From Escherichia coli (GTDB taxonomy: Bacteria > Pseudomonadota > Gammaproteobacteria > Enterobacterales > Enterobacteriaceae), in assembly GCF_024223415.1 (NCBI RefSeq), contig NZ_CP100502.1: DNA of 64,000 nucleotides, one strand, 5' to 3'. Position 1 is the first letter of the stretch. Each line of letters opens with the position of its first letter. Under the pieces are notes generated by a model. It was not told where the DNA came from. It made no database searches and saw nothing but the letters and a program-made list of their open reading frames with translations. Below are positions 5,960 to 25,735 of the stretch, piece after piece. The position numbers were made by a program, and so were the translations under genes.

Positions 5960-6160
5960 ACGGTTCTGTGGACAAAATACCTGGTTACCCAGGCCGTGCC
6001 GGCACGTTAACCGGGCTGCATCCGATGCAAGTGTGTCGCTGTCGCCGGCCTCCTCACCCGGTCACGTTTCGTCGTTCCTCCTCCACGCGCTGCGGCTTCG
6101 GGGCCGCACCTGCATTCGTATGCGGTCGCCCGGTAACAGGTGCGGCACGGCCTGATGGAG
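5960..6160. repeat. GC-rich structured region with loose similarity to the family-A ssi-like repeat
   Basis: seq: 'gcatccgatgcaagtgtgtcgctgtcgccggcctcctcacccggtcac' resembles the family-A core 'gggatgcaagggtacgcttcgccgctgcggtcacccggtc'; lies directly upstream of the + strand ORF at 6185. Confidence 0.3.
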
Positions 6161-6184
6161 GCCGCATGTGAGAGGAGAATTCCC

Positions 6185-7111
6185 ATGCCAAACTGGTGCT
6201 CGAATCGTATGTATTTTTCTGGTGAACCGGCACAGATCGCTGAGATTAAACGACTGGCCAGCGGTGCAGTTACACCGCTTTATCGCCGCGCCACAAATGA
6301 AGGTATTCAGCTGTTTCTGGCCGGAAGTGCCGGACTTCTGCAGATCACTGAAAATATCCGCTCTGAACAGTGCCCCGGAGTGACGGCTGCCGGACGTGGT
6401 GCTGTATCGACGGAAAATATCGCGTTCACCCGCTGGCTGACACACCTGCAGAACGGTGTACTGCTGGATGAGCAAAACTGCCTGATGCTGCATGAACTCT
6501 GGCTGCAGAGCGGTACTGGACAGCGTCGCTGGGAAGGATTACCGGATGATGTCAGGGAAACCATCACTGTGCATTTCACCGCAAAAAGAGGTGACTGGTG
6601 TGACATCTGGGGTAGCGAGGATGTATCGGTGTGGTGGAACCGTCTGTGTGACAACGTAGTGCCGGAAAAAACCATGCCGTTTGACCTGCTGACGGTTCTG
6701 CCGACCCGCCTGGATGTTGAAGTGAATGGCTTTAATGGTGGTGTTCTGAACGGTGTTCCTTCTGCATATCACTGGTATACAGAACGGTATGGCGTGAAGT
6801 GGCCTTGTGGGTATGACCTGAATATCAGTAGTCAGGGAGACAACTGCATTCAGGTGGATTTCGACACGCCGTGGTGTCAGCCGGAAAGCGACGTTGTTGC
6901 AGCATTAAGCCGCCGTTTCGGCTGCACGCTGGAGCACTGGTACGCCGAACAGGGCTGCAATTTCTGTGGCTGGCAGTTGTATGAGCGCGGAGAGCTCGTT
7001 GATGTGCTCTGGGGGGAACTGGAATGGTCTTCCCCGACAGATGACGATGAGCTGCCGGAAGTCACCGGACCTGCGTGGATAGTCGACAAGGTGGCGCATT
7101 ACGGGGGATGA
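6185..7111 (+). CDS. Hypothetical Cys/Trp-rich protein
   Basis: seq: GAGAGGAG RBS before ATG 6185 (track ORF from 6140); many Cys and Trp ('NWCSNRMYF', 'FGCTLEHWYAEQGCNFCGWQ'); no motif I can name. Confidence 0.5.
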   Translation: MPNWCSNRMYFSGEPAQIAEIKRLASGAVTPLYRRATNEGIQLFLAGSAGLLQITENIRSEQCPGVTAAGRGAVSTENIAFTRWLTHLQNGVLLDEQNCLMLHELWLQSGTGQRRWEGLPDDVRETITVHFTAKRGDWCDIWGSEDVSVWWNRLCDNVVPEKTMPFDLLTVLPTRLDVEVNGFNGGVLNGVPSAYHWYTERYGVKWPCGYDLNISSQGDNCIQVDFDTPWCQPESDVVAALSRRFGCTLEHWYAEQGCNFCGWQLYERGELVDVLWGELEWSSPTDDDELPEVTGPAWIVDKVAHYGG

Positions 7112-7123
7112 AGTATGACGGAG

Positions 7124-7150
7124 ACGGGCGGGCAACCGCCCGTTTCTTTT
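7124..7150 (+). terminator. Rho-independent terminator
   Basis: seq: stem 'acgggcgg'/'ccgcccgt' with loop 'gcaa', then 'ttctttt', 13 nt after the stop of the 6185..7111 ORF. Confidence 0.55.
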
Positions 7151-7490
7151 CCGACAAAGGATGTCGCCGTGCTCCTCTGTTTACTGCGCCGGCTGATGCG
7201 GCGCGGCATAAACGCTGCCTGTGGTCAGTGTCCCGCGTCCGGCGGGCACGGGACGGGCGCTTTTACCGCTCCCGGCTGGCGTCGGTGACAGTGTACGCCA
7301 GCCTGTCGCCCTTTTCTGATGAACGCCCTTCAAGCCGCTTTCGCGGCATATTCTCGCCGTCAAAAAGACGACGGCTGCGATATTCCACGGTCGGCCTGAC
7401 CCGTTACCGGACGCGGTGAACAGCCCACAGGCAGCGGGGAACGGGCACCACAGGGGTGCCCTCCCGGTGCCCTCTGAGAAAGAAGGAGTG
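7150..7490. repeat. GC-rich hairpin-rich non-coding region (possible diverged ssi-like element) upstream of the methyltransferase
   Basis: seq: 340 nt with several hairpins (e.g. 'gggcaccacaggggtgccc') and weak resemblance to family B ('cgctcccggctggcg'). Confidence 0.2.
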
Positions 7491-7495
7491 TTGTT

Positions 7496-8179
7496 ATGTC
7501 CCGTTTTGTCCTCGGTAACTGCATTGATGTTATGGCGCGTATTCCTGATAACGGCATTGATTTCATACTGACTGACCCGCCATACCTCGTCGGTTTTCGT
7601 GACCGACAGGGGCGTACCATCGCCGGCGATAAAACCGATGAATGGCTGCAACCAGCCTGTAATGAAATGTATCGCGTACTCAAAAAAGATGCGCTGATGG
7701 TCAGCTTCTACGGCTGGAACCGCGTCGATCGCTTTATGGCCGCCTGGAAAAATGCGGGATTCAGTGTGGTTGGGCACCTGGTCTTCACCAAAAACTACAC
7801 ATCGAAGGCCGCATATGTGGGTTATCGCCACGAATGCGCCTACGTTCTGGCAAAAGGCCGTCCGGCGCTGCCTCAGAAGCCATTACCCGACGTGCTGGGC
7901 TGGAAATATTCAGGCAATCGTCATCACCCGACGGAAAAGCCTGTTACCAGCCTGCAACCACTGATTGAGAGCTTCACACATCCGAACGCGATTGTGCTGG
8001 ACCCGTTTGCAGGCAGCGGCTCAACCTGCGTGGCTGCCCTTCAGTCCGGACGCCGGTATATCGGTATCGAGCTGCTTGAGCAGTATCACCGTGCCGGACA
8101 GCAACGTCTGGCTGCCGTACAGCGGGCCATGCAGCAGGGGGCCGCAAATGATGACTGGTTTATGCCGGAGGCTGCGTAA
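7496..8179 (+). CDS. Orphan DNA adenine (N6) methyltransferase
   Basis: seq: 227 aa with 'FILTDPPY' (motif IV, DPPY) and 'DPFAGSGST' (AdoMet-binding motif I); GAAGGAG RBS. known: orphan MTases are common in plasmid leading regions. Confidence 0.85.
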   Translation: MSRFVLGNCIDVMARIPDNGIDFILTDPPYLVGFRDRQGRTIAGDKTDEWLQPACNEMYRVLKKDALMVSFYGWNRVDRFMAAWKNAGFSVVGHLVFTKNYTSKAAYVGYRHECAYVLAKGRPALPQKPLPDVLGWKYSGNRHHPTEKPVTSLQPLIESFTHPNAIVLDPFAGSGSTCVAALQSGRRYIGIELLEQYHRAGQQRLAAVQRAMQQGAANDDWFMPEAA

Positions 8180-8401
8180 ATGAACTATGCCGGACATGAA
8201 AAACTTCGCGCCGAAGTGGCGGAGGTGGCCAATGCCATGTGCGACCTGCGTACAACCATGAATGAGATGGAGCGGCGGTACAGCTTTAATGCTGACACCC
8301 TGCCGGAACGTCTGGTGCGTCAGACGTTGTTTCGCGCAAACCGCCTCCTGATGGAGGCATATACCGAAATTCTGGAACTGGATTCCTGCTTCAAAGATTG
8401 A
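8180..8401 (+). CDS. Hypothetical small protein
   Basis: seq: 73-aa ORF whose ATG directly follows the methyltransferase stop codon. Confidence 0.4.
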   Translation: MNYAGHEKLRAEVAEVANAMCDLRTTMNEMERRYSFNADTLPERLVRQTLFRANRLLMEAYTEILELDSCFKD

Positions 8402-8412
8402 GGGGAGAGAGT

Positions 8413-8847
8413 ATGTACGGAACATGCGAAATACTCTGCCGGGAGCTGGCAGCAAAGTATCCGGCAGACACGCCACTGATGCTGGTTGTCTGGTCCCCTG
8501 AAGAGATTCAGGCCCTCGCTGACGGAATGGATATTTCCCTGTCCGATCATGAAATCAGGACCGTCCTGGCGCGCCTGGAGGACATCCCGGAAGACCAGCG
8601 GATTGAGTCCGGTATTTCTTCCGGCGTGGCGATGGAGATTATCAGCAACGTGAGAGAAAACCGCCAGGTGACCGTCCCTGCTGAACTGCTGGCGTCCCTG
8701 ATTCAGACCGCTGAACAGGCACTGTGGAAACGTGAATGGGCCGCCCGTGATAACGGCCTTGCCGTCCCGGAATGTGTTACCCGCCGTCAGGCAGTGATTA
8801 ATCAGGCCCGCACCCTGCTGAAAAACAACACACACGAAAACAACTGA
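8413..8847 (+). CDS. Hypothetical protein, paralog of the 10558..10980 ORF
   Basis: seq: GAGGGGAGAGAG RBS before ATG 8413; 'MYGTCEIL...[14 protein letters not shown]...[17 protein letters not shown]' aligns with 'MYCTVKEI...SDDELETVMQRLDD...RHVTVPAMMLEKVMALA'. Confidence 0.5.
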
Positions 8848-8897
8848 TGTTATCGCCGCCTGCCCTGCGGGCGGCGATACAGGGAGAACGCTTAATC

Positions 8898-9668
8898 ATG
8901 AACAAAACGCTGAATGCACTGGTTTGTCGTCACGCCCGTAACCTGCTGCTGGCGCAGGGCTGGCCGGAAGAGACGGATGTTGACCAGCGAAATCCGAACT
9001 ATCCGGGCTGGATCAGCATTTACGTGCGGCTGGATGCGCCCCGGCTGGCGACGTTACTTATCAACCGTCACGGCGGCGTACTGCCGCCGCTCCTGGCCTC
9101 CGCCATTCAGAGACTGACCGGAACCGGGGCGGAACTGGTACTGTCCGGCAGTCAGTGGCAGTCGCTGCCGGTACTTCCGGCAGACGGAACGCAGGTGTCT
9201 TTCCCGTATGCCGGAGAATGGCTGACCGAAGACGAAATCAGGGCTGTTCTTGATGCGGTGCACGATGCGGTACGAAGCATCTGTTACCAGGTGGCAGAAG
9301 ATGCGCGGCGTATCCGTGCGGCGCTGACCACCACCGGTCAGACGTTGCTGACCCGCCAGACGCGCCGCTTTCGCCTGGTCGTGAAGGAAAGCGATCACCC
9401 CTGCTGGCTCGATGAAGATGACGAAAACCTGCCCGTGGTGCTCGATGCCATCGTGAACCGGGGAGCACGTTTTTCGTCGGTGGAAATGTACCTGGTCAGC
9501 GATTGTATTGAGCATATCCTGTCCTGTGGGCTGGCCTGCGATGTGCTGCGTATACCCGATGAACCGCCCCGCCGCTGGTTTGACCGTGGTGTTCTGCGGG
9601 AGGTGGTCCGGGAAGCCCGGACCGAAATCCGCAGCATGGCGGATGCCCTGGCAAAAATCCGGAAATGA
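8898..9668 (+). CDS. Hypothetical protein
   Basis: seq: GGGAGA RBS before ATG 8898 (track ORF from 8847, overlapping the previous stop); last gene of a four-gene cluster. Confidence 0.45.
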
Positions 9669-9726
9669 TGACACTGGCGGGGTAAATCCCCGCCTTTTTC
9701 CTGCCGGTCCCCGGACAGAGCACAAA

Positions 9727-10057
9727 GGAAGTCGCCGCCGGCTCCGCTTTACCCGGCCATGCGGGGCATGGCCTTGTGGGTTTTCAGTTATGTGGCCACC
9801 GTGTCGTGTGCGGGCTGTGCCGTGCCTCCATCTTAGCCGGGCTGGCAGGGATGCAAGGGTACGCTTCGCCGCTGCGGTCACCCGGTCCCTCCTTCCCGTC
9901 TGCCGTGATTTTCCGGTCGTTCACCCGCTCAGATTTCGCGGTCTCACCCTCCAACTCCCGCCAGCCGTGTGCGTCAGGCTGCGGCTTCCCTTGCGCCCTG
10001 TGCATCCCCGCCTTATCGCCCGGCTTTTATGGAGGCACGGCACCGCCCGGTGTCGCG
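9727..10057 (+). repeat. Family-A ssi/Frpo-like repeat, copy A1
   Basis: seq: about 330 nt nearly identical to 16711..17041, GC-rich and hairpin-rich, ending about 30 nt before a gene start. known: IncI1 and F leading regions carry ssi/Frpo single-strand promoters. Confidence 0.6.
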
Positions 10058-10085
10058 GAATATGTGAACAACGGAGGAATACATC

Positions 10086-10511
10086 ATGCAATATGCGAAA
10101 CCTGTCACTCTGAATGTTGAAGAGTGCGACCGTCTGTTTTTTCTGCCTTACCTGTTTGGCCAGGATTTTCTGTATGTCGAAGCGTCTGTGTACGCGCTGG
10201 CGAAAAAAATGATGCCGGAATATGAAGGCGGATTCTGGCACTTCATCCGCCTGCCGGACGGTGGCGGCTACATGATGCCGGATGGCGACCGTTTCCACAT
10301 AGTGAACGGTGCAAACTGGTTTGACCGTACCGTGAGTGCTGATGCCTGCGGCATCATTCTGACTTCCCTTGTGATTAACCGCCAGTTGTGGCTGTACCAC
10401 GACAGCGGTGATGCAGGACTGACCCAGCTTTACCGGATGCGCGATGCGCAGTTGTGGCGTCACATCGAATTTCACCCTGAATGCAACGCGATTTACGCGG
10501 CTCTGGACTGA
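10086..10511 (+). CDS. klcA: KlcA/ArdB-family antirestriction protein
   Basis: seq: 141 aa, '[51 protein letters not shown]' resembles KlcA/ArdB from memory; GGAGG RBS. Confidence 0.65.
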
Positions 10512-10557
10512 TTAACGGACGGGGCGGCAATGCCGCCCCTGTAAAGGAGACGAGAAA

Positions 10558-10980
10558 ATGTACTGTACTGTTAAAGAAATTATCCGCGAAGTGCTGGATA
10601 CAGACGTGCCGGACAGTGAATGCGTTTTTGCCGTGGTGCTGACCCGTGGGGATGTGCGTCACATAGCCCAGGACTGGAACCTGTCAGACGATGAGCTGGA
10701 AACCGTCATGCAGCGGCTGGACGATGCCTTTGAGCATGGTGCGGATGTCAGCGTTGTTCACGACGTTGTTCGTGAACTGATGGAAGAAAAGCGCGCCAGC
10801 CGTCATGTGACAGTCCCGGCGATGATGCTGGAAAAAGTGATGGCGCTGGCAGGCAGTGAAATGAAGCGCCTGTATGCCGTCGGAAGTGAGAACGGGGGCG
10901 ACGGTGACGCATTCGTCAGGGAGGAACGCGAAGCAATGGACGTTGTGTTACAGGCGCTGGACGGGGAGACGATGTCATGA
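10558..10980 (+). CDS. Hypothetical protein, paralog of the 8413..8847 ORF
   Basis: seq: AAGGAG RBS; shared blocks with the 8413 ORF (see there). Confidence 0.5.
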   Translation: MYCTVKEIIREVLDTDVPDSECVFAVVLTRGDVRHIAQDWNLSDDELETVMQRLDDAFEHGADVSVVHDVVRELMEEKRASRHVTVPAMMLEKVMALAGSEMKRLYAVGSENGGDGDAFVREEREAMDVVLQALDGETMS

Positions 10981-11168
10981 ATATCAGCACAGAAACCCGC
11001 GAAATTCTGCGTAATTACAGGGCCGTGATTAATGCGCGGCGTCGTGAAATGGGGCAGAAACCGCTCACCACCGCGCAGATTGTTGATGAAATCTGCGATT
11101 TTGTGGCGAATCAGCAGGCGGTTTTCCTGGGCGGTCACTACATCTTACAGGGCAGCAGAAACAGGTGA
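10977..11168 (+). CDS. Hypothetical small protein
   Basis: seq: 63-aa ORF overlapping the preceding stop (ATGA). Confidence 0.3.
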   Translation: MNISTETREILRNYRAVINARRREMGQKPLTTAQIVDEICDFVANQQAVFLGGHYILQGSRNR

Positions 11169-11199
11169 TACAGGGGCAGGCGGTGGAGGCCGCCTGTCA

Positions 11200-11905
11200 G
11201 CCCGCGCGAAAACCCCTGGCAGGCTGACGCCTGCCGGAAGGGAAGCGGGCCACGCTGGCGCGTCGCCCGTTACCCTTCCCGTCTGTGATGTGTCTGACTC
11301 AGGAGTGTTTCTTTCTTATGTTATGGAACTGTTCCTGATGTTGTTGTTCCTTTATCTGCTGCTCTGATTCTGACTACTGCAGTGTTGTTCTGTCTGCCGG
11401 GCGCACCTTCGGCTCCCGGCTGCCTGGCGGCATCCGGTCGTCAGGCCCGACTCCGACAGGCAGCTGCTGGCGCACCCGCCAGTCTCCGCCGAACCCGCTG
11501 GCGCGGTTTCGGGCTGTCGCTACGGTCCGATGCGTGAAAACCCGGGCTTGCAGCGACCGTTCCGGTCGCGCCGCCTCTGTCGCGCCGTGACCTGCGCTCC
11601 CTGCACACCTGACGGTGTGTGAGGAAACTGCGCCTGATGGCGCAGCAGTCCTCCCTCCTGCCGCCACCTCTGCGGCCTGTTTCCCGCTGTGGACTTTCCG
11701 GGGGGCAGACGTAACCCCCTCCCGTTCCATCTGTCCAGGGTGAGATGCACCGGCCACAAAATTTTTAGCCATGAACCCGGCAAAAAATTTTGCGTCCGCC
11801 CCCGGACAGCTGTCCCGTGAGGCGGTAAACGGGCCCCCATCGGAAAGGTCCACTGCGGGGAGAAACCCCTGTGAAGTGGACGGCAGGAGGAGCTTTCGCT
11901 CCTCT
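11200..11905 (+). repeat. Family-B ssi/Frpo-like repeat, copy B1
   Basis: seq: long GC-rich repeat shared with 17600..18250 and partly with 20815..21140 (e.g. 'caccttcggctcccggctgcctggcggcatccggtcgtcaggcccgactccgacaggcag'); ends about 70 nt before ssb. Confidence 0.55.
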
Positions 11906-11973
11906 GAAGGGGCACATGAACGTCCCGTCTCCGGTATCCGGTTTATCTCACATCTTTCAGTCAGGAGGTTCTT

Positions 11974-12501
11974 ATGAGTGCACGTGGTATCAACAAGGTC
12001 ATCCTCGTCGGGCGTCTGGGCAATGATCCGGAGGTCCGTTACATCCCCAACGGTGGCGCAGTGGCAAACCTGCAGGTGGCCACGTCAGAAAGCTGGCGCG
12101 ACAAACAGACGGGGGAGATGCGGGAGCAGACGGAATGGCACCGTGTTGTGCTGTTCGGCAAGCTCGCGGAAGTGGCAGGTGAATATCTGCGCAAGGGCGC
12201 GCAGGTCTACATCGAGGGGCAACTCCGTACCCGTAGCTGGGACGACAACGGCATCACCCGCTACATCACTGAAATTCTTGTTAAGACCACGGGCACCATG
12301 CAGATGCTGGGGAGTGCACCACAGCAGAACGCTCAGGCGCAACCGAAGCCTCAGCAGAATGGGCAGCCACAGAGTGCTGACGCGACGAAAAAAGGTGGCG
12401 CGAAAACGAAAGGCCGTGGACGTAAGGCCGCGCAGCCCGAGCCTCAGCCGCAAACGCCGGAGGGGGAGGATTACGGGTTTTCAGACGACATCCCGTTCTG
12501 A
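11974..12501 (+). CDS. ssb: Plasmid single-stranded DNA-binding protein
   Basis: seq: '[48 protein letters not shown]...' is the canonical SSB OB-fold, with Gln/Pro-rich tail ending 'DIPF'; AGGAGG RBS. Confidence 0.95.
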
Positions 12502-12516
12502 TCGGGCTGACTGTGA

Positions 12517-12792
<276 letters not shown>

Positions 12793-12850
12793 GAGAGGTG
12801 CCGGACGCGCGAACGTCCGGCAGGACATAAGCAATTATAAGGGGATGATT

Positions 12851-14809
12851 ATGCCTGTAACGAAGTGTGAACCAGAAACCACCCGCAAAGCAAGCCGTAA
12901 ATCTGCAAAAACGCAGGAAACTGCCCTGTCTGCCCTGCTGGCGCAGACGGAGGAAGTGAGCGTGCCGCTGGCCTCACTGATTAAATCACCGCTGAATGTG
13001 CGCACGGTGCCGTATTCTGTGGAGTCCGTCAGCGAACTGGCTGGGTCCATTAAGGGCGTTGGCCTGTTGCAGAATCTGGTCGTGCATACCCTGCCTGGTG
13101 ACCGTTACGGTGTCGCCGCAGGTGGTCGCCGACTGGCTGCACTCAACATGCTGGCAGAGCGCAACATCCTTCCGGCTGACTGGCCTGTCCGTGTGAAGGT
13201 CATCCCGCAGGAACTGGCGACTGCCGCATCGATGACCGAGAACGGTCATCGTCGGGATATGCACCCTGCCGAACAGATTGCCGGATTCCGCGCATTGGCG
13301 CAGGAAGGCAAAACACCTGCACAGACTGGCGACCTGCTGGGCTATTCACCCCGCCACGTTCAGCGAATGCTGAAACTGGCAGACCTTGCGCCTGTCATCC
13401 TCGATGCGCTGGCAGAGGACCGCATCACCACCGAGCACTGTCAGGCGCTGGCGCTGGAGAGCGACACCGCGCGTCAGGTGCAGGTGTTTGAAGCGGCCTG
13501 CCAGTCAGGATGGGGCGGTAAACCGGATGTGCGGGTTATCCGCAACCTGATTACGGAAAGTGAAGTGGCAGTGAAGGACAACACTAAATTCCGCTTTGTG
13601 GGGGCTGATGCCTTCTCGCCAGACGAATTGCGCACCGATTTGTTCAGCGATGACGGGGACGGTTATGTCGACCGCGTGGCGCTCGATGCCGCCCTGCTGG
13701 AAAAACTCCAGGCTGTTGCAGAGTTCCTTCGGGAAGCCGAAGGCTGGGAATGGTGCGCCGGGCGCATGGAGCCTGTCGGTGAGTGCCGTGAGGATGCCGG
13801 AACATACCGCTGTCTGCCGGAGCCGGAAGCGGTGCTGACGGAGGCGGAAGACGAACGCCTGAACGAACTGATGACGCGTTACGACGCGCTGGAAAACCAG
13901 TGTGAGGAATCCGACCTGCTGGAAGCAGAAATGAAGCTGATGCGCTGCATGGCGAAGGTCAGAGCGTGGACGCCGGAGATACGTGCCGGAAGCGGTGTGG
14001 TGGTGTCCTGGCGTTATGGCAACGTATGTGTCCAGCGTGGTGTGCAGTTGCGCAGTGAAGATGACGCGACTGACGACGCTGACCGCACGGAACAGGTGCA
14101 GGAGAAAGCGTCAGTGGAGGAAATCAGCCTGCCGTTGCTGACGAAAATGTCCTCAGAGCGCACGCTGGCAGTCCAGGCGGCACTCATGCAGCAGCCGGAC
14201 AAATCTCTGGCACTGCTGGCATGGACGCTCTGCCTGAATGTGTTTGGCAGCGGGGCGTACAGTAAACCAGCACAAATCAGCCTGGAATGTGAACATTATT
14301 CGCTGACCAGCGATGCGCCATCGGGGAAGGAAGGTGCCGCATTCATGGCGCTGATGGCAGAAAAATCCCGTCTTGCAGCCCTGCTGCCGGAGGGATGGTC
14401 ACGGGACATGACGACATTCCTGTCCCTCAGTCAGGAGGTGCTGTTATCCCTGCTCAGTTTCTGCACCGCATGCAGCCTTAACGGTGTCCAGACCCGTGAG
14501 TGTGGTCACACGTCACGCAGTCCGCTTGACTCGCTGGAAAGCGCTATCGGATTCCACATGCGCGACTGGTGGCAGCCGACAAAAGCAAACTTCTTCGGAC
14601 ACCTGAAAAAGCCGCAGATTATCGCAGCCCTGAATGAGGCCGGACTGTCCGGTGCCGCACGGGACGCGGAGAAGATGAAGAAAGGTGATGCGGCTGAACA
14701 TGCAGAGCACCATATGAAAGACAACCGCTGGGTTCCAGGCTGGATGTGTGCACCACATCCACAGACAGATGCCACTGAACGCACCGATAACCTGGCTGAT
14801 GCCGCCTGA
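12851..14809 (+). CDS. Large ParB/Sulfiredoxin-domain (ParB-like nuclease) protein
   Basis: seq: N-terminal ParB-like region 'LIKSPLNVRTVPYSVESVSELAGSIKGVGLLQNLVVH...GGRRLAALNML'; AAGGGG RBS before ATG 12851 (track from 12761). known: a large ParB-like gene sits between ssb and psiB in F/IncI leading regions. Confidence 0.7.
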   Translation: MPVTKCEPETTRKASRKSAKTQETALSALLAQTEEVSVPLASLIKSPLNVRTVPYSVESVSELAGSIKGVGLLQNLVVHTLPGDRYGVAAGGRRLAALNMLAERNILPADWPVRVKVIPQELATAASMTENGHRRDMHPAEQIAGFRALAQEGKTPAQTGDLLGYSPRHVQRMLKLADLAPVILDALAEDRITTEHCQALALESDTARQVQVFEAACQSGWGGKPDVRVIRNLITESEVAVKDNTKFRFVGADAFSPDELRTDLFSDDGDGYVDRVALDAALLEKLQAVAEFLREAEGWEWCAGRMEPVGECREDAGTYRCLPEPEAVLTEAEDERLNELMTRYDALENQCEESDLLEAEMKLMRCMAKVRAWTPEIRAGSGVVVSWRYGNVCVQRGVQLRSEDDATDDADRTEQVQEKASVEEISLPLLTKMSSERTLAVQAALMQQPDKSLALLAWTLCLNVFGSGAYSKPAQISLECEHYSLTSDAPSGKEGAAFMALMAEKSRLAALLPEGWSRDMTTFLSLSQEVLLSLLSFCTACSLNGVQTRECGHTSRSPLDSLESAIGFHMRDWWQPTKANFFGHLKKPQIIAALNEAGLSGAARDAEKMKKGDAAEHAEHHMKDNRWVPGWMCAPHPQTDATERTDNLADAA

Positions 14810-22586: not shown

Positions 22587-22648
22587 CCTGAAAAACGGGA
22601 CAGGATGTGCAATTGTAATACCGTCACACGCGACGCTATTACAATTGC
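22587..22648 (-). other. oriT: Origin of transfer (oriT) core with 17-bp inverted repeat and nic region
   Basis: seq: minus-strand 'ggtattacaattgcacatcctgtcccgtttttcagg' with arms 22609..22625 and 22632..22648. known: from memory the R64 nic lies in 'CATCCTG|TCCCG'; position upstream of nikA fits. Confidence 0.6.
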
Positions 22649-22692
22649 CATCTGGTCAGGGCTTCGCCCCGACACCCCGTAAGGAGCCTGAA

Positions 22693-23025
22693 GTGAGTGA
22701 TAGTGCGGTAAGAAAGAAAAGTGAGGTACGGCAAAAGACAGTTGTCAGGACACTCAGATTCTCTCCTGTTGAGGATGAAACCATCAGGAAAAAAGCTGAA
22801 GATTCCGGACTTACTGTATCTGCTTACATCCGAAATGCAGCACTGAATAAGCGAATTAACTCCCGTACAGATGATGCTTTTCTGAAGGAGTTAATGAGAC
22901 TGGGAAGGATGCAGAAGCATCTGTTTGTTCAGGGAAAAAGAACCGGTGACAAGGAATACGCAGAAGTGCTTGTTGCCATAACCGAACTTACAAATACATT
23001 GCGTAAACAGTTAATGGAAGGTTGA
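22693..23025 (+). CDS. nikA: Relaxosome accessory protein NikA
   Basis: seq: GTG 22693 with AAGGAG RBS gives 110 aa 'MSDSAVRKKSEVRQKTVVRTLRFSPVEDETIRKKAEDSGLTVSAYIRNAAL', matching R64 NikA in size and sequence from memory. Confidence 0.85.
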   Translation: MSDSAVRKKSEVRQKTVVRTLRFSPVEDETIRKKAEDSGLTVSAYIRNAALNKRINSRTDDAFLKELMRLGRMQKHLFVQGKRTGDKEYAEVLVAITELTNTLRKQLMEG

Positions 23026-23035
23026 GGATTCTCCG

Positions 23036-25735
23036 GTGAATGCAGTCATTCCGAAAAAGAGAAGGGACGGCAAGTCTTCGTTCGAAGACCTGGTATCCTA
23101 CGTCTCTGTCCGGGATGACATGACCGATGAGGAACTGGATTTATCTTCTTCTTCGCAGGCTGAACAACCGCACCGAAGCCGTTTCAGTCGCCTTGTTGAT
23201 TATGCGACACGTCTTCGAAATGAGTCATTCGTGGCGCTGGTTGATGTCATGAAGGACGGCTGCGAATGGGTCAACTTTTATGGTGTCACCTGCTTTCATA
23301 ACTGTACTTCTCTTGAAACTGCCGCTGCAGATATGGAGTACATTGCCCGGCAGGCACACTATGCAAAAGATGACACTGATCCTGTTTTTCACTACATCCT
23401 TTCCTGGCAGTCACATGAAAGCCCGCGTCCGGAACAGATTTATGACAGTGTACGTCATACGCTGAAATCACTCGGCCTTGCCGACCATCAGTATGTCTCT
23501 GCCGTGCATACTGATACAGATAATCTGCACGTCCATGTGGCTGTTAACCGGGTACACCCTGAAACGGGTTATCTGAACCGGTTATCCTGGAGTCAGGAAA
23601 AACTCAGTCGTGCCTGCCGTGAGCTTGAACTGAAGCATGGTTTTGCTCCGGATAACGGTTGCTGGGTCCATGCACCGGGAAATCGTATCGTTCGCAAAAC
23701 CGCCGTTGAACGTGATCGCCAGAACGCGTGGACACGCGGGAAAAAACAAACTTTTCGCGAGTATGTCGCGCAGACAGCGGTCGCTGGTTTACGCAGTGAA
23801 CCTGTAAATGACTGGTTATCCCTGCATCGTCGTCTTGCGGAAGATGGTCTGTACCTGTCTCAGATGGACGGAAAATTTCTGGTGATGGATGGCTGGGATC
23901 GCAACAGGGAAGGTGTACAGCTTGACTCGTTTGGTCCCTCCTGGTGTGCAGAAAAACTCATGAAAAAAATGGGTGACTACACGCCAGTACCAAAAGACAT
24001 TTTCAGCCAGGTGGAAGCACCAGGACGCTATAATCCGGACTTCATTGCCGCTGATGTTCGCCCGGAAAAAATCGCTGAAACAGAAAGTCTGCAGCAGTAT
24101 GCCTGTCGTCATCTTGGAGAACGTCTGCCGGAAATGGCACGGGAAGGACGGCTGGAAAACTGCCAGGCTATTCACCGCACACTGGCTGAAGCGGGATTAT
24201 GGATGCGTGTTCAGCATGGTCACCTGGTTATCTGTGACGGTTATGATCATAACCAGACTCCCGTTCGTGCTGACAGCGTATGGTCGCTGCTGACGCTCGA
24301 CAATGTGAATCAACTCGATGGTGGCTGGCAGCCTGTACCAACAGATATTTTCCGCCAGGTTACGCCAACAGAACGCTTCCGTGGTCGTCGTATGGAGAGC
24401 TGTCCTGCGACCGATAAAGAATGGCACCGTATGCGTACAGGCACGGGGCCGCAGGGGGCTATCAAACGCGAACTGTTTTCTGACAAAGAAAGTCTGTGGG
24501 GATACAGCATCAGCCATTGTAGCCCTCAGATTGAAGAAATGATCACACAGGGTGAGTTTACCTGGCAGCGTTGTCATGAGCTGTTTGCACAACAGGGACT
24601 GATGCTACAGAAACAACATCACGGGCTTGTTGTCGTTGATGCCTTTAATCATGAGCAAACGCCGGTGAAGGCCAGCAGCATTCATCCTGATCTGACACTG
24701 GGGCGTGCAGAGCCACAGGCCGGACCTTTTGTGAGTGCCCCAGCAGATTTGTTTGACAGGGTGCAACCTGAAAGTCGCTATAACCCGGAGCTGGCTGTCA
24801 GTGACAGGTACGGGGTCAGCAGTAAACGTGACCCAATGCTGCGCCGGCAGCGACGTGAAGCCAGAGCTGAGGCCCGTGCTGACCTGCGTGCCCGCTATCT
24901 GGCATGGCGTGAACAATGGCGTAAACCAGATCTGCGTTATGGGGAACGTTGTCGGGAAATTCATCAGGCATGCCGTCTGCGGAAGTCACACATTCGTGCG
25001 CAGTACGATGATCCGGCATTACGTAAGCTGCATTATCACATTGCAGAAGTTCAGCGAATGCAGGCATTGATCAGGCTGAAAGAAGACATCAGGGATGAGC
25101 GACAGAAACTTATTGCTGATGGGAAATGGTATCCACCCTCTTACCGTCAGTGGGTCGAAATTCAGGCTGCTCAGGGAGACAGGGCTGCTGTATCGCAGCT
25201 GAGAGGCTGGGATTATCGCGATCGCCGTAAAGACAGGTCACGCACAACGACGACAGACCGCTGTGTCGTGCTTTGTGAACCGGGCGGAACGCCGGTATAC
25301 GGTAATACCGGTGATCTCGAGGCCCGTCTGCAGAAGAACGGGAGTGTTCGTTTCCGTGACCGTCGGACGGGAGAGTTTGTCTGTACGGATTATGGTGACA
25401 GGGTTGTTTTCCGTAATCACCATGACCGCAATGCGCTGGCAGATAAACTGGATTTGATTGCACCGGTATTATTCGGGCGTGATCCACGCATGGGTTTTGA
25501 ACCAGAAGGAAACGACAAACAATTTAACCAGGTCTTTGCTGAAATGGTTGCCTGGCATAATGTGACAGGCCGTACCGGTCACGAAGACTACAGGATTACG
25601 CGACCGGACGTGGATCATCACCGTGAAGGAAGTGAACGCTACTACCGCGATTATATCGCGGCGAACAGCAACAATGACGCATCACTGCCTCCGCCGGAGC
25701 AGGATAAACGCTGGGAACCGCCTTCTCCAGGTTAA
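23036..25735 (+). CDS. nikB: Relaxase NikB
   Basis: seq: 899 aa right after nikA; His-rich motif 'HTDTDNLHVHVAVNRVHP'; size matches R64 NikB. Confidence 0.9.
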   Translation: MNAVIPKKRRDGKSSFEDLVSYVSVRDDMTDEELDLSSSSQAEQPHRSRFSRLVDYATRLRNESFVALVDVMKDGCEWVNFYGVTCFHNCTSLETAAADMEYIARQAHYAKDDTDPVFHYILSWQSHESPRPEQIYDSVRHTLKSLGLADHQYVSAVHTDTDNLHVHVAVNRVHPETGYLNRLSWSQEKLSRACRELELKHGFAPDNGCWVHAPGNRIVRKTAVERDRQNAWTRGKKQTFREYVAQTAVAGLRSEPVNDWLSLHRRLAEDGLYLSQMDGKFLVMDGWDRNREGVQLDSFGPSWCAEKLMKKMGDYTPVPKDIFSQVEAPGRYNPDFIAADVRPEKIAETESLQQYACRHLGERLPEMAREGRLENCQAIHRTLAEAGLWMRVQHGHLVICDGYDHNQTPVRADSVWSLLTLDNVNQLDGGWQPVPTDIFRQVTPTERFRGRRMESCPATDKEWHRMRTGTGPQGAIKRELFSDKESLWGYSISHCSPQIEEMITQGEFTWQRCHELFAQQGLMLQKQHHGLVVVDAFNHEQTPVKASSIHPDLTLGRAEPQAGPFVSAPADLFDRVQPESRYNPELAVSDRYGVSSKRDPMLRRQRREARAEARADLRARYLAWREQWRKPDLRYGERCREIHQACRLRKSHIRAQYDDPALRKLHYHIAEVQRMQALIRLKEDIRDERQKLIADGKWYPPSYRQWVEIQAAQGDRAAVSQLRGWDYRDRRKDRSRTTTTDRCVVLCEPGGTPVYGNTGDLEARLQKNGSVRFRDRRTGEFVCTDYGDRVVFRNHHDRNALADKLDLIAPVLFGRDPRMGFEPEGNDKQFNQVFAEMVAWHNVTGRTGHEDYRITRPDVDHHREGSERYYRDYIAANSNNDASLPPPEQDKRWEPPSPG

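Follow-up and report, generated by a model that had tools for sequence, protein, structure and literature searches.

Leading regions decide plasmid survival on entry into a new host. Among their products, ArdA is a DNA mimic, and the SOS inhibitor PsiB (145 aa, pI 5.0), which is expressed from an ssDNA promoter, binds RecA. PsiB acts by binding a host protein stoichiometrically, and standard matings reveal no phenotype for it. Anti-defence genes are over-represented in leading regions (PMC11541004). The methyltransferase M.EcoGIX methylates DNA when cloned alone (PMC7736820), and a clone of KlcA by itself confers antirestriction in vivo (PMC9366191). Hairpin-forming intergenic regions of the type described below were identified as ssDNA promoters (PMC12672017). 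In pESBL, an ssDNA promoter was mapped by 5'RACE upstream of M.EcoGIX, and klcA is preceded by a class 2 promoter (PMC12672017). In F, the ArdB homolog yfgB is expressed from the promoter ssp2, which is also a replication roadblock (bioRxiv 10.64898/2026.01.09.698686).

The whole stretch of DNA analysed here (the window, 64,000 nt) is an IncI1 plasmid of the ColIb-P9/R64 type, with a DNA identity of 99.6% to ColIb-P9 and other IncI1 plasmids. The initial annotation had pointed to a paralogous pair of ORFs in two leading-region operons, and both ORFs were recovered at the coordinates it gave, 8413-8847 and 10558-10980. They are yfcB (D1) and yfeC (D2), DUF1380 genes (Pfam PF07128, PHROG 9024) previously catalogued on IncI1 and IncF plasmids, and no sequence-level difference separates them from yfcB and yfeC of R64/ColIb-P9. 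On other plasmids, D1 is named YcgB, YceB or YubF, and D2 is named YcjA, YcgC or YubJ; all of these names except YceB are those of IncF plasmids. RefSeq gives both copies the name "DUF1380 family protein", twice per record, and GenBank and PGAP also assign them to DUF1380. Annotation by Pfam and RefSeq already contains the paralogy, and as a finding of the scan the pair had been known before. In Samuel et al. (2024), both families are given as enriched and rank with the largest and most prevalent of those leading-region families that are uncharacterised, which flagged them as candidates (PMC11541004, supplementary file 3). The literature search could not detect a functional study of DUF1380, of yfcB and yfeC, of the genes under the names yubF, yubJ, ycjA and ycgB, or of yffA and yfhA. 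What is added here are two clades with fixed operon addresses, a facultative and tandem copy number, selection estimates, and the absence of a known fold relative. The features of the two operons are listed in Table 1.

Table 1. Features of the two DUF1380 operons, with positions in the window.
Feature	Coordinates	Strand	Description
Structured intergenic region 5' of the MTase operon; ssDNA-promoter type 'class 3'/ssp3	7112..7495	-	long hairpin, template (transferred) strand
yfbB, M.EcoGIX-type single-strand-specific N6-adenine DNA methyltransferase (MTase)	7496..8179	+	first in operon 1; 'DNA methylase' in matching records
yfcA, YubE family	8180..8401	+	73 aa; PHROG 4830; PF27407 YubE in homologous loci
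yfcB (D1), DUF1380 paralog of the MTase-operon clade	8413..8847	+	144 aa, MYGTCEIL..., pI 4.8
yfdA, YubG family	8898..9668	+	256 aa; last in operon 1; from the ORF list; RefSeq 'YubG family protein'; PHROG 8919
Terminator-like GC hairpin followed by a T-run	9676..9694	+	GGCGGGGTAAATCCCCGCC TTTTT; directly after yfdA, divides the two operons
Structured intergenic region 5' of klcA; ssDNA-promoter type 'class 2'/ssp2	9670..10085	-	long hairpin, template strand
yfeB, KlcA/ArdB antirestriction protein	10086..10511	+	first in operon 2; PHROG 10132 anti-restriction; annotated 'antirestriction protein'
GC-rich stem-loop, conserved	10517..10541	+	GGGGCGGC-AAT-GCCGCCCC; no T-run; between klcA and D2
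yfeC (D2), DUF1380 paralog of the KlcA-operon clade	10558..10980	+	140 aa, MYCTVKEI..., pI 4.4, net charge -17
yffA, small basic protein	10977..11168	+	63 aa, pI 9.8; start overlaps D2 stop (ATGTCATGA)

The pair belongs to DUF1380, with HMM matches over most of the 137 model positions. D1 matched the Pfam model over its full length (positions 1-137, E=9.1e-54), and D2 alone gave a weak match (positions 1-102, E=2e-4). The matches to PHROG 9024 had E-values of 3e-72 for D1 and 1e-5 for D2. Full-length members of the family have 135-144 aa, and a six-frame HMM scan revealed exactly two DUF1380 copies in the window, D1 and D2. BLASTP aligned the two proteins with 29% identity over 116 aa (E=2e-10), and hhalign, using profiles of 14 D1-clade and 13 D2-clade sequences, aligned the clades over 136 columns with 99.8% probability (E=2.2e-27). 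Judged by sequence, D1 and D2 are true paralogs over their whole length. Two of the conserved blocks on which the pair had been recognised, SD[HD]E[IL][RE]TV[LM][AQ]RL[ED]D in the middle and R[QH]VTVPA[EM][LM]L, align in BLASTP exactly as described; the N-terminal block is present with its 'EI' shifted by one residue, a trivial deviation. The similarity is not of low complexity, and it extends beyond the three blocks through the 136-column profile alignment. The clades are about 25-29% identical and stand cleanly apart in the tree, in agreement with the old duplication that had been suggested.

As the initial annotation had it, the two genes lie in separate operons. The MTase operon ends at the hairpin 9676-9694, the klcA operon is separate, and each is found behind a long hairpin-forming intergenic region. 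The minus strand of 7112..7495 folds as DNA with -109.4 kcal/mol (z=-7.0 against shuffles), and the region 9670..10085 folds with -106.7 kcal/mol (z=-5.0). Both DUF1380 genes possess good ribosome-binding sites, GAGGGGAGAG-N3-ATG in D1 and AAAGGAG-N8-ATG in D2. PF01555 was found in loci homologous to that of yfbB, and YfbB of R64 is 94% identical to M.EcoGIX (PMC4288162). The YubE-family gene yfcA always lies between MTase and D1. Long antisense ORFs run over D1 (8320-8835, minus strand). Pfam could not detect a domain in yfdA, for which an alternative upstream ATG exists at 8847.

In the klcA operon, PF03230 was found in loci homologous to yfeB. The stem-loop between klcA and D2 is invariant in five alleles whose coding DNA differs by 5-8%, and it could be an mRNA stabiliser or attenuator. 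The overlap of the D2 stop with the YffA start was also found in loci L013-L016, and in loci without D2, YffA directly follows KlcA or ArdA. No Pfam domain was detected in YffA, and no homology between YubE and YffA.

By their position, their template strand and the hairpin promoter upstream, D1 and D2 have the features of zygotically induced leading-region genes. D1, D2, ssb and psiB are all encoded on the plus strand, and nikA/nikB (22645-25735) lie on the same strand as D1 and D2. No dsDNA sigma-70 consensus was found in 7000-12000. Strong induction of the two operons was seen in pESBL and F transconjugants (PMC12672017; bioRxiv 10.64898/2026.01.09.698686), the induction and 5'RACE data referring to these two plasmids, which are other than the one analysed here. 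According to the published TnSeq of pESBL, neither Hp10 (D1) nor Hp12 (D2) is needed by the plasmid for transfer or maintenance in laboratory E. coli (non-essential, 1.00), and ArdA, KlcA, PsiB and M.EcoGIX score the same.

The AF2 models of D1 (pLDDT 86.5) and D2 (pLDDT 78.5) are all-helical with the same topology, which points to a fold common to both copies. The predicted order is five N-terminal helices in D1 and four in D2, the RxVTVPA hinge, and two long C-terminal helices. The proteins appear to be built from an N-terminal domain of about 80 aa carrying most of the negative charge, followed by the conserved hinge and, over about 55 C-terminal residues, a helical hairpin. Across the family, the pI is 4.3-5.0 and the net charge -7 to -17. 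No related fold outside DUF1380 was detected in PDB or AFDB, and the afdb50 search returned only DUF1380 entries of Enterobacterales, save probable mislabelled records. Searches of PDB by sequence, with phmmer for each protein and with hmmsearch for a 23-sequence profile, gave no meaningful match; the best was a de novo designed helical protein (E=1e-3). Pfam, NCBIfam and PADLOC revealed no enzyme family or catalytic motif in D1 and D2. NCBIfam gave no match, and PADLOC models gave none at E<=0.1 for D1, D2 and four neighbours.

D1 resembles acyl carrier proteins (ACP) in its acidic helical domain and in a helix start, 'S-L-S-D...', similar to the ACP DSL motif, and residues 50-99 of D1 alone matched PP-binding (PF00550) weakly (E=0.014). 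This relationship was rejected because the candidate serine varies (S, T, N, D or P), as in a helix N-cap and not as in an invariant modification site. The match was found in 2/23 family members at E<=0.1 and in 0/23 at E<=0.001, and no ACP was present among the fold matches. D1 and D2 could not be placed in KlcA/ArdB (PF03230) either: Pfam gave only DUF1380, and no KlcA structure was found among the fold or PDB-sequence matches. Nor do they belong to the DNA-mimic antirestriction proteins of the ArdA/Ocr type, which are characterised by a very high negative surface charge that mimics B-DNA and by an ArdA- or Ocr-like fold. DUF1380 does share with ArdA and KlcA/ArdB the leading-region address, the transient zygotic expression from ssDNA promoters, a similar size (140-170 aa), the acidic character (-0.12 charge per residue in D2), and dispensability in laboratory matings. 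PsiB is likewise a leading-region protein, but its sequence is unrelated to DUF1380, with no detectable homology.

We propose, with a probability of roughly 0.45, that D1 and D2 are autonomous, non-enzymatic binders of host factors during plasmid establishment, with a conditional anti-defence or establishment function. According to the literature, both operons are transcribed transiently in the recipient, from hairpins of the entering strand that serve as ssDNA promoters immediately after transfer. D1 and D2 would act stoichiometrically: they would bind, and thereby neutralise, a host protein dangerous to plasmid establishment, in a conditional role akin to that of their neighbours ArdA, KlcA, PsiB and M.EcoGIX. 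Each clade, and each additional tandem copy, would probably be directed at a different host target or target variant. A binder-like nature is suggested by the size of about 140 aa, the acidic character, the all-helical AF2 models and the lack of a catalytic motif. Autonomy is supported by the presence of D1 without KlcA and of D2 without an adjacent MTase, by the clean absence of D2 from some loci, by tandem copies, and by the activity of MTase and KlcA alone. That these proteins are inhibitors tracking variable host targets, as had been suggested, is a reasonable guess, and the putative anti-defence role is drawn by guilt by association. It is tentatively possible, at somewhat less than even odds, that DUF1380 is a new, fold-novel plasmid anti-defence family in which each clade or tandem copy neutralises a different immune or DNA-surveillance protein via the acidic N-terminal domain, in the first minutes after entry.

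Both genes are conserved: D1 was found in 3300/5426 and D2 in 3478/5426 complete E. coli genomes (each about 60%), and the two-operon block is covered to at least 80% in 3126 of the complete genomes. In PLSDB, more than 5000 plasmids match DUF1380, of which 83% are conjugative, with hosts including Klebsiella, Escherichia, Salmonella, Enterobacter, Citrobacter, Yersinia and others. The family is confined to conjugative plasmids of Enterobacterales. No DUF1380 homologs were present in 50,697 phage records, though a PHROG family exists; of a general anti-defence protein, sharing with phages might be expected, and this counts against the host-binder model.

Each clade has a fixed address, MTase-YubE-D1 and KlcA-D2(-YffA). 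This arrangement would fit D1 and D2 as accessory partners of their operon neighbours and not as independent effectors, D1 together with YubE tuning, targeting or restraining the ssDNA methyltransferase, a reading that we consider unlikely. Even where identity falls to about 30%, the order is strictly kept: MTase-YubE-D1 was found in 28/28 D1-clade loci, wherever upstream sequence was present, and D2 directly after KlcA in 17/18 informative loci, both statistics being ascertained through DUF1380 itself because a narrower alignment recovered mostly D1-type loci. For the genome-wide locus scan, a diverse alignment gave no block conserved enough to search with. The strict MTase-YubE-D1 order, which also fits a functional partnership, counts against the host-binder model. 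A partnership is also consistent with the parallel divergence of KlcA and D2 (45/33, 39/38 and 33/33% identity), the overlapping genes of the acidic D2 and the basic YffA, an in-frame D1::YubG fusion in one database protein (P0127), and the unresolved mechanism of KlcA (PMC9366191). However, M.EcoGIX is active alone and KlcA alone gives antirestriction in vivo. D1 is present in plasmids where ArdA replaces KlcA (L010, L036-L041 and L044), and many KlcA-YffA plasmids are cleanly devoid of D2 between the two genes (L029, L035, L042, L043 and L046), with YffA also found after ArdA. The Pantoea plasmid pJZ29-03 possesses the MTase without D1 at its usual position after it, and an IncL/M plasmid (L027) has D2 upstream of KlcA and lacks an MTase within 6 kb. 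In addition, the identities of MTase and D1 are uncoupled in L010 (89% vs 34%).

An establishment role unrelated to immunity, such as modulation of ssDNA-to-dsDNA conversion, interaction with SSB, RecA, UvrD or the replisome, or feedback on the ssDNA promoters, we regard as quite unlikely. It would fit the early expression wave that D1 and D2 share with ssb, psiB and a ParB-like gene (PMC12672017), the klcA promoter ssp2, a replication roadblock resolved by UvrD (bioRxiv 10.64898/2026.01.09.698686), and a Pol III theta homolog just downstream in L018. It would also fit the acidic character of D1 and D2, because of which they are likelier to bind proteins than DNA. Nonetheless, neither gene is required for transfer or maintenance in laboratory matings, and rifampicin experiments indicate that conversion needs host factors only (bioRxiv 10.64898/2026.01.09.698686). 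DUF1380 is present facultatively, with 0 to 4 copies per leading region and tandem duplicates in L018, L028 and L047, a pattern seldom expected of a core establishment function. Fold searches with D1 and D2 gave no DNA-binding protein or regulator.

Pooled dN/dS was 0.31 for D1 and 0.34 for D2 in the plus frame, in agreement with the claim that both copies are kept under selection. These values are roughly three times higher than those of the neighbours MTase (0.11) and KlcA (0.12). The term 'diversifying' in the initial annotation was not borne out, the values being well below 1. Because dN/dS is clearly below 1, there is no gene-level signature of positive selection, which counts against the host-binder model. 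D1 and D2 are under purifying selection of a relaxed kind, which may leave small patches variable; candidates for such patches are residues 14-20 in D1 and 59-73 in D2. Values of distant pairs (the window vs L004, L007 and L010) were not used because synonymous sites are saturated. The deep divergence of D1 in L010 and the copy number of 0 to 4 fit an arms race, and equally cassette shuffling. A reading of D1 and D2 as hitch-hiking ORFs without function, or as mis-called frames of a GC-rich stretch, would agree with the lack of a TnSeq phenotype, the antisense ORFs over D1 and the inconsistent start-codon annotation among RefSeq records, but it is highly improbable given the dN/dS in the plus frame, family conservation to about 25% identity with retained domain architecture, confident AF2 models, proper ribosome-binding sites on both genes and transcription of the operons in transconjugants (PMC12672017), and the data on selection and conservation effectively refute it.

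DUF1380 genes are among the commonest leading-region genes and are expressed in the first wave after transfer. In Enterobacterales, ESBL and carbapenemase genes are carried mainly by IncF, IncI1 and IncL/M plasmids. If D1 and D2 are host-factor binders with an anti-defence function, their targets would add a new inhibitor family and help to explain plasmid host range. DUF1380 would then be among the most widespread uncharacterised plasmid host-range determinants, given its presence in some 60% of complete E. coli genomes and on IncF, IncI and IncL/M resistance plasmids.

The 6000-13000 segment matched thousands of enterobacterial plasmids by megablast, and the best matches (99.6% identity) were IncI1 plasmids, ColIb-P9 (NC_002122) among them. 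These matches and the gene order (Table) identify the segment as an IncI1 leading region. The ORF list confirmed the coordinates and lengths that the initial annotation gave for yfcB (product D1, 144 aa) and yfeC (product D2, 140 aa). RefSeq start codons of D1 disagree, predicting 144, 172 or 184 aa (window 8398-8413; L003 2966-3520; L021, L023 and L024), and the longer forms run into yfcA. The family-wide MYGT N-terminus and the ribosome-binding site GAGGGGAGAG support ATG 8413 as the probable start. Two starts are also possible for yfdA, ATG 8847, overlapping the D1 stop codon, or ATG 8898; database records begin at or near the latter (771-777 nt).

Table. Features of the leading region, with dN/dS (pooled Nei-Gojobori; seven alleles: window, F and five E. 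coli plasmids)
Feature	Position	Strand	dN/dS	Remark
impCAB		-		start of listed gene order
yfaB (DUF1281)				after impCAB, before yfbB
intergenic region	7112-7495			structured
yfbB (methyltransferase, MTase)	7496-8179		0.11
yfcA (YubE)	8180-8401		0.20
yfcB (D1)	8413-8847		0.31
yfdA (YubG)	8898-9668		0.24
intergenic region	9670-10085			structured
terminator-like hairpin	9676-9694			directly 3' of yfdA
klcA/ardB (yfeB)	10086-10511		0.12
stem-loop	10517-10541			between klcA stop codon and yfeC ribosome-binding site
yfeC (D2)	10558-10980		0.34
yfeC stop/yffA start overlap	10977-10980			ATGTCATGA
yffA	10977-11168		0.13
ssb, DUF905, ParB-like gene, psiB				in order after yffA
nikA/nikB	22645-25735			beyond psiB

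D1 and D2 are paralogs, with a similarity well above chance. BLASTP aligned them at 29% identity over 116 residues (E=2e-10), with the conserved blocks described earlier in register. The match to Pfam DUF1380 covered D1 in full (E=9e-54) and was weak in D2, over its first 100 residues (E=2e-4); both proteins matched PHROG 9024. Diverse full-length relatives were gathered by searching 1.84 billion cluster representatives, which returned just 260 matches at E<=1e-3; the family is therefore narrow. In a neighbour-joining tree these relatives formed two clades, one with D1 and one with D2, whose profiles aligned over 136 columns (99.8% probability, E=2e-27), as expected from the old duplication that had been proposed. 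Taken together, BLASTP, Pfam, PHROG, tree and profile alignment establish homology along the full length and rule out a compositional origin in low-complexity segments. When the 64 kb window was scanned with an HMM in all six frames, no DUF1380 copies other than these two were found.

AlphaFold2 models, built with a 23-sequence alignment, were all-helical and confident (pLDDT 86.5 for D1, 78.5 for D2). Both begin with short helices (five in D1, four in D2) that reach to about residue 82; the conserved RxVTVPA segment comes next, and a long hairpin of two helices (residues 90-142 in D1) follows. A flexible hinge between the N-terminal part and the C-terminal hairpin is suggested by pTM values of 0.5-0.6 and by the large rmsd among AFDB models of the family. 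All family members are acidic (pI 4.3-5.0), the D2 clade (net charge -13 to -17) more so than the D1 clade (-7 to -11), and the negative charge lies mostly in the N-terminal domain. Searches of Pfam, NCBIfam and PADLOC detected neither an enzyme family nor a catalytic motif nor any model of a defence system. A PP-binding (ACP) identity for D1 was rejected, as the match was weak and not general in the family and the candidate serine is unconserved.

The two genes lie in two different leading-region operons, as the initial annotation held, separated by the terminator-like hairpin behind yfdA and each preceded by a structured intergenic region. No dsDNA sigma-70 consensus was found in either region, and their template strands form much more stable folds than shuffled sequences do (z=-7.0 for 7112-7495 and z=-5.0 for 9670-10085). 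These folds agree with the 5'RACE-mapped ssDNA promoters of the IncI1 plasmid pESBL, class 3 upstream of M.EcoGIX and class 2 upstream of klcA (Wen et al. 2025, PMC12672017). Both operons are strongly and transiently induced in pESBL and F transconjugants (PMC12672017), and the F klcA-operon promoter ssp2 also stalls complementary-strand synthesis, prolonging early expression (2026 preprint, bioRxiv 10.64898/2026.01.09.698686). By homology with these plasmids, both paralogs would belong to the zygotically induced gene set. Although their coding DNA varies by 5-8%, five alleles share an identical GC-rich stem-loop upstream of yfeC (GGGGCGGC-AAT-GCCGCCCC, with no T-run); this invariance points to a conserved element at the RNA or ssDNA level.

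Neighbours were tabulated by tblastn and clade-specific HMMs in 36 loci, all ascertained via DUF1380 itself, from metagenome and genome contigs with distant members, PLSDB and RefSeq records, and a GTDB-wide scan. A D1-clade gene lies directly behind MTase-YubE in 28/28 loci carrying one (in L032 the contig starts at YubE, with the MTase out of view), even when D1 is about 30% identical to the window copy. D2-clade genes directly follow a KlcA homolog in 17 of the 18 informative loci, also where the identity of KlcA itself falls to 30-45%. Despite this regularity, the DUF1380 genes behave as optional modules, with 0 to 4 copies per leading region. ArdA replaces KlcA in eight D1-bearing plasmids (L010, L036-L041, L044), and five loci (L029, L035, L042, L043, L046) have KlcA and YffA but cleanly lack the D2 between them. 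Four copies, two per operon, occur in L018 (NZ_CP081692.1, 4912-8415) and two D1 copies in L047. The Pantoea plasmid pJZ29-03 (L028) has an MTase, no D1 at the usual place after it, and two tandem DUF1380 genes behind KlcA (6001-6872). The IncL/M, pOXA-48-like pKp_Goe_304-3 (L027, 3741-5159) departs from the usual order: its D2-clade gene precedes klcA, and no MTase is encoded within 6 kb. The N-terminus of this D2-clade protein is divergent, and the protein carries MHGN and RKIEVNA instead of MYGT and RxVTVPA.

D1 and D2 are real genes under purifying selection, as their dN/dS of 0.31 and 0.34 shows, yet every other gene of the block is more tightly constrained. Their variable positions are concentrated at residues 14-20 of D1 and 59-73 of D2. 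In deep comparisons dN/dS is uninformative because synonymous sites are saturated; there, identities are strongly uncoupled (L010: MTase 89% vs D1 34% and YubE 33%), which could reflect fast evolution or cassette exchange.

Of 5426 complete E. coli genomes, 3300 contained D1 DNA and 3478 contained D2 DNA, nearly always on a plasmid, and the whole 3.7 kb block was at least 80% covered in 3126. A distant D2-clade query matched >5000 PLSDB plasmids (83% conjugative), with hosts including Klebsiella, Escherichia, Salmonella, Enterobacter, Citrobacter, Yersinia, Serratia, Raoultella and Pantoea. No phage homologs were found in 50,697 phage records. Five contigs labelled as Oscillibacter, Oscillospiraceae or Collinsella MAGs or Streptomyces morookaense (L029, L032, L033, L034, L037) carry 86-92% identical IncF/IncI-type leading-region genes, and an Acinetobacter idrijaensis contig (L048) just a distant D2-clade fragment (29% identical); these labels most likely reflect contamination or mis-binning and not true hosts. 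Natural CRISPR immunity has sampled yfcB, since a 33-nt spacer (L026 702-734) in a type I-F array beside cas6f on the E. coli STEC299 chromosome (NZ_CP022279.1) is 100% identical to window 8566-8598. The crRNA-sense-side flank of this target is apparently CG, compared with the canonical CC PAM.

The pair is already known as a family, a catalogued domain of unknown function on one of the best-sequenced plasmid backbones. Both genes are labelled "DUF1380 family protein" in GenBank/RefSeq, including on plasmid F and on essentially every E. coli plasmid with the block. Samuel et al. (2024, Supplementary Table 1) list both among the largest uncharacterised leading-region-enriched families, YcgB/YceB/YfcB/YubF (DUF1380) with 3957 members and YcjA/YcgC/YfeC/YubJ (PF07128) with 3145 (PMC11541004). 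A literature search under all gene names found returned no functional study.

The published pESBL TnSeq scored Hp10 (D1) and Hp12 (D2) as fully dispensable, both for plasmid maintenance and for transfer from one laboratory strain to another. The score was the same for ArdA, KlcA, PsiB and M.EcoGIX, whose roles are visible solely when the recipient has a matching barrier. M.EcoGIX cloned by itself methylates DNA (PMC7736820) and KlcA by itself is antirestrictive in vivo (PMC9366191); therefore neither needs a DUF1380 protein for basic activity. Given these self-sufficient neighbours and a distribution that is both facultative and modular, the simplest interpretation, to which we give a probability of about 0.45, is that DUF1380 proteins would act on their own, being expressed early and binding a host factor without enzymatic activity, in a conditional anti-defence or establishment role. 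Instead, D1 might assist the MTase/YubE module and D2 the KlcA/YffA module as accessory partners. The fixed order of the genes, the start/stop overlap between D2 and YffA and one D1::YubG fusion protein favour this reading, but we consider it unlikely, as the same self-sufficiency and distribution speak against it. An establishment function with no relation to immunity seems similarly unlikely, and the possibility that these are not real genes is effectively excluded by purifying selection and conservation.

The overlapping codons mean that yfeC and yffA may be translationally coupled. A D2 stop overlapping a 58-63 aa ORF recurs in the distant loci L013, L014, L015 and L016, and YffA is basic (pI 9.8) whereas D2 is acidic (pI 4.4). 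Plasmids lacking D2 have YffA directly behind KlcA or ArdA. Three collected proteins (P0127, P0137, P0154) join the D1 N-terminus in frame to YubG/YfdA or to unrelated sequence, P0127 (375 aa) to YubG/YfdA at an AR.LL microhomology. Deletions or assembly artefacts probably account for them, and as 'Rosetta stone' evidence the D1::YubG fusion carries little weight at best.

The interpretation offered with the initial annotation is supported in part: an old duplication, maintenance under selection and location in two operons hold, whereas diversifying selection and an inhibitor role against variable host targets are conjectural. The window contributes no unusual variant of the family.
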